This document shows, in pieces, positions 6,001 to 9,000 of a stretch of 64,000 nucleotides of DNA. Position 1 is the stretch's first letter. Each line of letters starts with the position of its first letter. This stretch comes from Candidatus Fraserbacteria bacterium (GTDB lineage: Bacteria > Bipolaricaulota > Bipolaricaulia > RBG-16-55-9 > DRXL01), in NCBI GenBank assembly GCA_947085185.1, contig CAMTVK010000003.1:64001-128000 (forward strand), written 5' to 3'. Position numbers: made by a program.

Positions 6001-9000
6001 ATGATGCTCTCCGTCGACTTGGACAACGATGGGACCTCTGAGGGCGTGATGGGGATCTCGACCCGATTCGCTCTGCCCCTCATCCCCCCGAGGTGTCCGT
6101 GATTCAAAACTTCGCGCCCTTGCGGGTCTTGATCACTTCGTCAATCAAGTGATAGTTCTTGGCGTCCTCGGGGCTCATGAAGAAGTCCCGGTCGGTGTCG
6201 CGCTCCACACGCTCGAGGGGCTGACCGGTGTGCATGGCCAGAATGCGATTGAGCTGATCGCGCGTCTTTAAGATCTCTTCGGCGTGAATCTTTATATCAG
6301 CAGCGGCTCCTTGCACCCCACCCCACGGCTGATGGATCATGATGCGCGCGTTGGGCAACGAGAGCCGCTTGCCCTTCGTCCCCGCAGCCAAGAGCAACGC
6401 GCCCATGGAGAACGCCGAGCCCACACAGATCGTGCGCACGTCGCTGCGCACATATTGCATCGTGTCATAGATCGCCAACCCCGCTGTTGTGCTGCCCCCA
6501 GGAGAGTTAATATAGAGATTGATGTCCTTCTCTGAATCTTTGGAGTCGAGAAAGAGCATCTGTGCCACCACCAAATTGGCCACATAATCGTTGATGACGC
6601 CCTGCAAGAAGATAATACGGTCTTCCAACAGCCGAGAGTAAATATCGTAGACACGCTCATATTGGCCGGTGCGATCAATGACGAACGGCACTTGGGCTTT
6701 CATGGTGATTCACCTCTCCTTTGAGGTGTGTGGTTTGTCCGTGCTTTCCGTGATTCTAAATAATTTTCGCATTTTCATAGAGAAACTGCAAGGCCCGCTC
6801 GTCTTCGAGCTCGGAGCGGAAGCTCTGTAATCGCCCCTCGCGCTCCAGGAGCGCGCGGAGTTTTATGGGCTTCATCTCGCGCTTGCGTGCCTCTTCTTCT
6901 AAGAATTTTTCGAAATCTGCCTCGCTCAGCTTGAAGCCCTCCTGCTTTTTGATCGCTTCGAGGACGAGTTCACGCTTGACGCGCTGTGCGATCGCTTCTT
7001 TGAGCTTCTTCACCTCGTCTGCAGGAGGCTCCGGCATCCCCGAAGACTGAAGGCGCTCAAGCTCTTGGGCGACGAGCTCGTCAACGAAGCGTGTGGGCAG
7101 CTCCAGCGGCGTCTGCGCGACCAGAGCATCGAGAATCTTGAGCTTGAGCTCGCGCTCGCGGCGTCGCGCGCGACGCCCTTCTAATTCTTGGCGGATCTGT
7201 GCTCGGAGTGTTGCTATGTCTTCGTGTCCCAAAGTTTTGGCGAGCTCCGCGAGCTCGGGCTTCTCTAAGAGTTTGACGCCCTCGATGCGCACGATGAGAC
7301 GTGGCTGCTGGGCGCTTGTCGTCAGGGTGATGGTCTCACCGATCCTATGCCCGATGAGCTGCTCGGTGAGCTCGCCGGGGGAGGCCTGCCACTCCCGCAC
7401 TTGGTCCTCGCCGGAGATCCGCACCTCGACGATGTCCCCTGCCTCTACGGTGGAGCTCTGTGCGCCCGTCTTGGGGAGGAGCGTCGCGTGTTCACGTCGT
7501 ATCTGCTCGAGCACCGCGTCAATATCGCTCTCTTGGACAGGCTGGACAGGGATGTCCTCGACCTCGATCCCTCTATAGTTTTGTACGGTCACTTCGGGAA
7601 GGACCTCGATCTCGGCCTCGAACGTGAAGTCTTGGTGAGGGTCAAAGACTCCCGGCCTCGTCTGAGGAGCGCTGACGGGGCGAACCTGTAATTGCTGGAG
7701 CGCCTGAGGGAGATACTCTTCGATGAGCTCTGTTTGGGCGTCTTCGTTGAGGAAATCTTTGCCGAAGCGGGCCTCCAGCACAGCGCGCGGGACGTGCCCC
7801 GGGCGAAAGCCGGGGAGCTGAATCTCCCGACTGGCCCGACGAAAGAGCTCGTCGAGCTTCTCTCTGACGGTCTCGGCAGGGATCTCCACGCGCACCGTGA
7901 CTTGGGTGGGGCTCTTGAACTCTTTGGTGGCTTTCACGGCTGAGCGCTCCTCTCCTGAATGAGTTTTGTCAACAGCATATTGAGGGGTGTTGGGATGTGT
8001 AATCTTCGTCCCTCACGGACGACAGCTCCATTAATATACTCGATCTCTGTAGGTCGGCCGCGGCGCACATCTTGCAGCATGCTCGAGATATTCTGAGCCG
8101 TCTTGCACGCGACCGTCTCAACTCGTTCTATGGCTTCAGCTTCGCTGAGCGTCACCCCATGAGCGCGAGCCACCTGGAGCGCTTCACGGGCTACTGCCCC
8201 GGCGATCTCTCGGAGCTGTGGGTCATGGACGATGCTCCCGTTGGGCTGATCAAAGAGCGCCGTCAGCGGGTTGATCGCGCAGTTAATAATAAGCTTTTCC
8301 CAGAGAAGGCGCTCGATCTCTTCAGTATATTCTGGTTCGATCTGAGCTGTGCGCAAGAGCGCGATGATCTCTTCTATCTCTGGGGTGAGCGGGCCCTCCC
8401 AGCGGCCAAGTCTTGTGGGGCCGACGCCGGCCCAGCGCACCCGCCCGGGACCAAGCAGCGTCGCCCCTTGGGCTGTCACCCCGCGCAGGAATCTCTCTTT
8501 GGGAACGAATCGTAAGATTTCGTTCTCCATGCCGACCCCGTTCTGCAAGCTGAGCACCCATGACCGCGAAGATAATCTGGGAGCGATCTGCTCCATAGCC
8601 CGTAAAGTCTGATGGGCCTTCACGAAGATCCCCACAAGATCGGCGTCAGCGAGGGCTTCCGGGGTTGTCATAGCGTCTACCAAGACCCGAACAGGAGCGC
8701 CGTCGCGCTCGATGATCAACCCGGCGCTCGTGATCGCTCGTATATGCTCGACATTCGAAGGGTTATACAGCGAGACCGACGCTCCGGCCCGCGCCAGTAA
8801 GCCCCCAACGAGACTTCCCAAGGCTCCCGCGCCCACAATGCAGATCTTCATTGGAGTTTTTTGAGGATCTCTTCGCTGATCGTGAAGCTGTGCTCTGCGA
8901 CCGTCGGAAATTTTCCGGATTTGACGTCGCTCAGGAAATTTTTCGCAGCGCCTTCGATCTGCTCCGCCACGTTCGTATAGCGCTTAGAAAACTTGGGCGA

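Follow-up and report, generated by a model that had tools for sequence, protein, structure and literature searches.

Loss of ClpX in the phylum Bipolaricaulota and an Asn-ending tmRNA tag in most of its families

Introduction

ClpX is treated as near-universal, the Ala-Ala end of the tmRNA tag as a fixed rule of trans-translation and Mycoplasma as the standard exception to it. The canonical ssrA degron of ClpXP ends in Ala-Ala (PMC7652416, PMC10862746), and the Ala-Ala rule for ClpX, which a preliminary description of the DNA analyzed here had stated, is documented (PMC7652416). In Mycoplasma and Mesoplasma, the tmRNA tag is read by Lon (PMC8403727, PMC8138137, citing Gur and Sauer, 2008). SsrA tags are also recognized by ClpA and by mycobacterial ClpC1, where a double-ring Clp ATPase with ClpP serves as a back-up to ClpX and the tag keeps its Ala-Ala (PMC6274998, PMC5041485). 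Lineage-specific variation of the tag is known and includes short Ala-Ala tags (PMC11915505) and the tag of Carsonella, which ends in Lys (PMC4131195).

The system described here shares with the canonical ClpXP degron the RF00023 RNA, SmpB, the usual resume signal and stop position and an Ala/aromatic-rich tag core, but Leu/Tyr-Asn replaces Ala-Ala and no ClpX is encoded. With the Lon-read tag of the Mollicutes it has in common that ClpX is absent, that trans-translation is kept and that the tag misfits the ClpX rule. The Bipolaricaulota case works like the Mycoplasma rewiring in these respects and differs from it in the two features that mark the Mollicute type, LonA and a long tag: the Mollicutes use LonA, which is missing here from 123 of 149 genomes, and their tags are long (27 residues in M. 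pneumoniae), whereas the Asn-type tags are of ordinary length with a polar Asn end. Moreover, the Mollicutes are without ClpXP altogether, whereas ClpP and ClpC are retained here, in genomes that are not minimal. The available portions of PMC11915505 and PMC4131195 make no mention of an Asn-ending family, of Bipolaricaulota or of a link to clpX loss, and the supplement of PMC11915505 gave no match for phylum or genus terms. A literature search that scarcely covered subscription papers found no paper on clpX loss or on the tag in Bipolaricaulota or Elusimicrobia; a curated tmRNA database probably lists these tags.

The tig-clpP locus and the absence of ClpX

The genome under study (G000) is 1.72 Mb in size and 96.8% complete, and the window is the whole stretch of 64,000 nucleotides that was analyzed, C3:64001-128000. 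The positions 6104-7937 given for the tig-clpP locus are already window coordinates; an earlier remark that they count along the whole contig is wrong. Both genes are intact and adjacent (Table 1), an order also found in the 15 clpP loci inspected among 30 retrieved. As the preliminary description had claimed, the pair lacks clpX: directly after the clpP stop lies a converging 184-aa ORF, which occupies the usual place of clpX and has a similar ORF in the same place in two other genomes (G067 and G022). Because this gene, on the opposite strand, abuts the clpP stop, there is no assembly gap concealing clpX. A tig-clpP pair with no clpX behind it is a common arrangement (PMC7804408); the oddity of this genome is that clpX is found nowhere else in it.

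The further claims that clpX is missing from the whole genome and from nearly the whole phylum were borne out. The TIGR00382 profile found nothing over its cut-off in G000, the best match being HslU (5.8e-25), and tblastn of the genome with a real ClpX and with the first 60 residues of that protein (zinc finger) returned other AAA+ proteins only. Across 184 Bipolaricaulota genomes, TIGR00382 matched at E<=1e-30 in three (G039, G006 and G147) and over the cut-off in one, while all 10 bacterial controls scored over it. The sole ClpX over the cut-off, that of G039, is encoded on a contig of 1,697 bp and preceded there by a clpP fragment 54% identical to the ClpP of G000, and the full clpP of that genome sits on a different contig; the ClpX contig is probably foreign contamination. 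The match of G147 is a 98-aa piece on a 501-bp contig. The ClpX-like protein of G006 was considered as a hidden ClpX and rejected: it has no zinc finger and unrelated neighbor genes and looks foreign or mobile. Gene content shows that clpX was lost in the ancestor of the Bipolaricaulota, while tig-clpP, tmRNA and SmpB were retained.

Elsewhere in the window, the region 65-4698 encodes a tandem of three secreted paralogs, 481-526 aa long, each with a C-terminal Phe and probably beta-barrels. A 130-aa retropepsin-like ORF (DSG motif) at 5070-5462 has a C-terminus of its own that reads ELN, possibly as a native substrate and possibly by chance; it is the sole LN-ending ORF in a crude count of the G000 proteome.

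Table 1. Positions of the genes and RNA features of G000 discussed in the text (C, contig).
Feature	Location	Strand	Details
tig, trigger factor, 393 aa	window 6756-7937	(-)	TIGR00115, 217.2 bits (cut-off 180.2)
clpP, 199 aa	window 6104-6703	(-)	TIGR00493, 316.6 bits (cut-off 308.6); sole ClpP of the genome (one match)
184-aa ORF converging on clpP	window 5548-6102	(+)	from the ORF list; no NCBIfam family
ftsH	window 44598-46730 (C3:108598-110730)	(+)	TIGR01241, E 2e-246
clpC-radA-disA	from C2:185712		
second clpC	C3:60455-62899	(-)	
lonA	C21:46674-49046		
hslVU	C5:84215-86265		
ctpA	C2:104520-105809	(-)	
lonC, two copies	C2:148554-150962; C3:36715-39084		
ARC-like ATPase	C19, about 20310-22136		C-terminus GEMVV
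proteasome alpha and beta genes	C5:67505-72323		flanked by two Pup-ligase-family genes
rqcH	C7, about 101750-103400	(-)	E 1e-73 to B. subtilis RqcH
smpB	C19:65566-65988	(-)	
tmRNA	C21:125285-124218	(-)	tag codons 125196-125158; RF00023 match C21:124943-125277, 134.3 bits (gathering score 47)
group I-type intron in the tmRNA T-loop, 710 nt	C21:124944-124235	(-)	LAGLIDADG ORF inside

The tmRNA gene and its T-loop intron

The tmRNA of G000 was matched where the preliminary description had placed it, but the gene extends beyond that match to C21:124218, as a 710-nt intron lies in its T-loop. The tag sequence given there stands: the frame after the resume signal reads ANNFAYATASLN followed by a stop. 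An open tag frame with its stop in the helix loop was found, the resume site aligns across families, and SmpB scores 194 bits, over its cut-off. The 3' exon lies 710 nt downstream and is identical to the 3' end of the tmRNA of intron-less relatives; the joined tmRNA of 358 nt has a complete tRNA-like domain with a CCA end. ARAGORN reported no tmRNA in G000 at default settings and gave false calls at relaxed settings, because the intron splits the T-loop.

Group I introns in the T-loop of tmRNA are a known gene form, with a reported maximum of 700 bp (PMC11915505). Like these, the insert of G000 interrupts the T-loop behind a U and has a terminal G; unlike them, the insert is slightly above the maximum, and its LAGLIDADG ORF begins just behind the 5' splice site rather than at P7.1 or P9 (PMC11915505). 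Removal of the insert restores the T-loop. No Rfam intron model matched it at E<=0.1, and its 3' part folds strongly (z -6.3). Core motifs were judged by eye, and the insert is probably of group I type. Related inserts occur in G029, G036, G067, G034 and G070, where the 3' exon was found, and in G116 and G148, where it lies beyond the retrieved range. RNA contigs 90-95% alike cover the tmRNA in four of four RNA runs, all of them from relatives and as small-share matches; a spliced joint was looked for in these runs and none was seen. One relative's RNA contig doubles back across 261 nt of the intron core, the pattern expected of a circle (a single contig, at a likeness threshold of 85%).

Tag ends across the Bipolaricaulota

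A tmRNA over the cut-off was present in 126 of the 151 Bipolaricaulota genomes searched, and 109 of these were retrieved, the 17 left out belonging to families f6 and f7. From them 108 tags were read; the locus of G128 is truncated, and the tag of G142 was read separately from the main batch. Two second tmRNA matches were set aside, one in G120 that misfits the phylum model and one in G103 that is divergent, reads ANDNASVLALVA and looks foreign or mobile.

The Ser/Ala-Leu/Tyr-Asn ending that the preliminary description had assigned to the whole phylum holds for 99 of the 108 tags (87 LN, 7 YN and 5 LS, with Asn as the last residue in 94), from families f1-f7 and f9, but not for families f8, f10 and f11. 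The nine tags of these three families (f8, n = 7) end in PAM, GIA, PVG, AFA, ALA, VAA, LAA, VAV and AVA, and a terminal Ala-Ala is found in two of the 108 tags, both from f8. Judged from the alignment, the nine small-hydrophobic tags are not mis-called frames, because their resume site aligns with the rest. Asn-type tags are 11-16 residues long, and the Ala-type tags of f8 are 21-30 residues long. The latter are rich in Thr, Ser, Ala and Gly with variable hydrophobic ends and come from genomes without ClpX and without LonA. The pattern of the commonest ending occurs at 36 places in the GTDB genome collection; six are not tmRNA, and 30 are tmRNAs of the Asn type, whose record titles name Bipolaricaulota, Acetothermia, uncultured Thermotogae or uncultured bacterium.

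The Asn-type tag end is under selection as a peptide, as the synonymous codon changes within it show. The Asn codon is AAC in 87 tags and AAT in seven, Leu at -2 is written with five different codons, Ser at -3 is TCN in 66 and AGY in six of the 99 Asn-type tags, and all three stop codons occur. Differences among close 12-codon tags number 330, 203 and 772 at the first, second and third codon positions, respectively, in pairs that are not independent. In the tmRNA of G000, the Asn codon falls outside the stem of the helix over the stop, in its unpaired loop.

History of the Asn end

The preliminary description held that the tag had changed in step with ClpX loss, a view that the nine small-hydrophobic tags from three ClpX-less families do not support. 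The loss spans all families and the Asn end does not; thus the loss permits a change of the tag and does not force it. On either side of the protein tree, it is families f8, f10 and f11 that branch deepest. In trees of ClpC and of four joined proteins, which are quick trees on subsets of 22 and 17 ingroup rows, f10 stands beside f1-f5, f8 beside f6, f7 and f9, and f11 is basal. Uniting the Asn-tag families in a single clade is rejected (AU test on a quick LG+G4 tree of 22 rows, p 5e-14), the fewest changes being two; the tmRNA tree without the tag, in which some cut points are mis-placed, does not decide on such a clade (p 0.36). The Asn end may have had two origins or have been transferred with its gene; alternatively, it is ancient and was later lost. 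The FAAPSLN ending common to f2-f5 and f7 argues for one origin.

A second phylum without ClpX

Contrary to the statement that no such case exists outside Mycoplasma, ClpX-less lineages of a second phylum, Elusimicrobia by record title, also drop Ala-Ala; the phylum is that of G185, an outgroup genome found to be without ClpX. Of its 81 genomes, 35 encode ClpX over the cut-off and 74 have a tmRNA. Tags were read from 70 of these 74, the four left out all being ClpX-less, with a frame rule that favored A-x-A and AA ends, and the kin compared are not independent. An Ala-Ala end is found in 31 of 31 ClpX-bearing genomes (30 by the frame rule and G250 by ARAGORN) vs 6 of 39 without a full ClpX; the other 33 end in ATA, ANA, AHA, AYA, AHC or AVC. 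Three of the six ClpX-less Ala-Ala genomes are placed among ClpX-bearing relatives in the tmRNA tree, and the non-AA tags form two separate clades. This independent covariation supports the view that tag and ClpX co-evolve. One ClpX-bearing clade of the same phylum has long Met/Phe/Pro-rich tags that end in PIAA.

Candidate proteases

If a single protease reads the Asn-type tag, it would have to be one owned by every Asn-tag genome. Lon, ClpCP, HslUV, FtsH and a proteasome had been put forward in the preliminary description. ClpC and FtsH proved near-universal (98 and 97 of 98 Bipolaricaulota genomes, respectively), as are ClpP (137 of 149) and CtpA (93 of 98), but LonA, HslU and the ARC ATPase are too patchy. 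LonA is found in 26 of 149 genomes and is confined to the order of G000, with 0 of 46 in f6 and 0 of 58 in f7. HslU is present in 115 of 149; 31 of the 46 f6 genomes lack it, among them G001 and G002, which are one-contig genomes. A full-length ARC ATPase occurs in 20 of 98, the remaining matches being half-length AAA hits. LonA, HslU and full ARC are all absent from G001 and G002, whose tags end in ALN. The proteasome, LonA and HslUV are ruled out by this absence as phylum-wide readers and may help where they are present. In G000, the proteasome and Pup-ligase-family genes together with ARC (Table 1) presumably form a UBact-type system. A cereblon-like reader of C-terminal Asn or imide was also rejected, in G000, which has no PF03226 gene. 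At C2:145030-150962, G000 also carries a block resembling a heat-resistance island, made up of a ClpG/ClpK-like disaggregase whose N-terminus bears a Cys motif, an S49-like gene and LonC.

Protease sets vary widely among the Asn-tag families and the tag does not, which favors a reading without any single reader: the hydrophobic core would act as an unfolded-protein signal for whatever protease is owned (ClpCP, FtsH, LonA, HslUV or LonC), and Asn would be held for another reason, such as the termination context, contacts with SmpB or the RNA, or separation from the Ala tails made by RqcH. That three families manage with Ala-type ends, that the last codons form part of a tmRNA helix and of the loop on it and that RqcH is kept in five of five genomes tested are consistent with it. 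However, the synonymous variation and the use of all three stops point to selection on the peptide, and Asn is kept in 94 of 99 tags, so that we regard this reading as unlikely. In the RqcH of G000 the aligned DR pair reads ER, and in G001 rqcH lies about 2 kb from clpP.

By its distribution, the membrane-bound FtsH is a candidate for the main reader; it would take the tag from the C-terminus, with the L/Y-N end tuned to it. FtsH is a weak unfolder with a taste for non-polar ends. In E. coli, ssrA-tagged proteins are among its substrates and further C-terminal degrons are known (PMC8403727, PMC8138137), but in M. pneumoniae, which has no ClpX, the tag was not degraded by FtsH (PMC8403727), and we consider such a role improbable.

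A still weaker candidate is LonC, a Lon-like protein without ATPase activity that might clear tagged unfolded fragments. Its family assignment comes from Pfam and PDB hits. G000 encodes it twice, and five of five other genomes (f6, f7 and f8) have homologues at 46-50% identity, which makes it present in all six tested. That sample covers six genomes, the Ala-type family f8 has LonC too, and folded tagged proteins would resist a protease without ATP-powered unfolding (PMC3391209, PMC13069640); we rate it very unlikely.

PDZ domains read C-terminal residues, and the tag end might be tuned to that of the exported tail-specific protease CtpA, which is widespread overall but found in one of three Ala-type f8 genomes. 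The CtpA of G000, however, starts with a hydrophobic signal-like segment and so would meet exported substrates only, its PDZ loop is ordinary compared with that of a solved CtpA, and f10 and f11 have CtpA with Ala-type ends. Of all the readings considered, this one is the most improbable.

ClpCP as the putative reader

We propose, with a probability of roughly 45%, that ClpCP reads the Asn-ending tag. It is put first because ClpP depends on a partner ATPase, of which ClpC is the sole universal one, and because of the precedent of mycobacterial ClpC1, which unfolds an SsrA-tagged protein without an adaptor (PMC6274998). Stalled ribosomes would still be rescued by tmRNA, which in most families is predicted to add a tag of 12-17 residues, ending in an aromatic/alanine-rich stretch followed by (P)-S/A-L/Y-N. 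The single ClpP with the radA-linked ClpC may then take hold of the tag by its hydrophobic core and L/Y-N end, with or without the help of an adaptor, with FtsH and exported CtpA probably as back-ups. ClpX loss may have removed the need for Ala-Ala, after which the end would have been re-tuned and come under the selection that now keeps it. The role of the tag as a degron, recognition through its Asn and the identity of the protease are matters that we infer.

The ClpC has two Clp_N repeats, two AAA domains, a short UVR middle domain (Pfam) and an xGF loop; the ClpP-docking loop reads LGF or a close variant in 41 of 41 ClpC rows, and the pore-loop motifs match those of outgroups. The nearest solved N-domains are those of ClpC, no NCBIfam model scored over its cut-off, and the radA-linked ClpC of G000 is 77% identical to a Candidatus Bipolaricaulota record. 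In most of 20 wide loci, with genes named from sequence, glmU-prs-rplY-pth runs straight into clpC-radA-disA without ctsR-mcsA-mcsB between pth and clpC. The Arg of the first ClpC N-domain motif, which we take to be the phospho-arginine-binding residue, is replaced in all 40 rows covering that position. ClpCP would be the main route here, not a back-up as for ClpA and ClpC1 (PMC6274998, PMC5041485), and a further difference is that ClpS was not found in G000 and McsB (PF00217) in none of 98 Bipolaricaulota genomes.

Several observations count against ClpCP. B. subtilis ClpC needs an adaptor or a modified substrate (PMC8138137), and the searches for ClpS and McsB found neither. FtsH, CtpA and LonC pass the same presence test. 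Families f8, f10 and f11 also lack ClpX and share this ClpC, but their tags have small hydrophobic ends. A search for ClpC residues that track the tag type gave nothing convincing: four columns separate the groups, none of them in the pore loop. Since RqcH is kept, Ala tails must still have some reader. Avoidance of LN protein ends among 1,415 crude ORFs of G000 is not clear, with one seen vs two to four expected and few cases.

More tentatively, and on balance doubtfully, (P)-S/A-L/Y-N-COOH would be a dedicated Asn C-degron, recognized by a re-purposed ClpC that has given up phospho-arginine, or by an adaptor. The change would then count among several independent cases in which the tmRNA tag was rewired following the loss of clpX, in the Mollicutes, the Bipolaricaulota and at least two Elusimicrobia lineages.

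Conclusions

The phylum-wide loss of ClpX and the conserved Asn-ending tag in most families of the Bipolaricaulota are real. They open a direct question, namely which protease reads the tmRNA tag when ClpX and LonA are both missing. A tag that is expected to be unreadable by ClpXP could, when paired with its own protease, be put to use for orthogonal protein degradation, and if the reading as a dedicated Asn C-degron is true, the two would form a ClpX-orthogonal tag-protease pair. A whole ClpX-less phylum with a conserved polar tag end, together with the covariation in the second phylum, points to repeated co-evolution of tmRNA tags and the proteases that read them.
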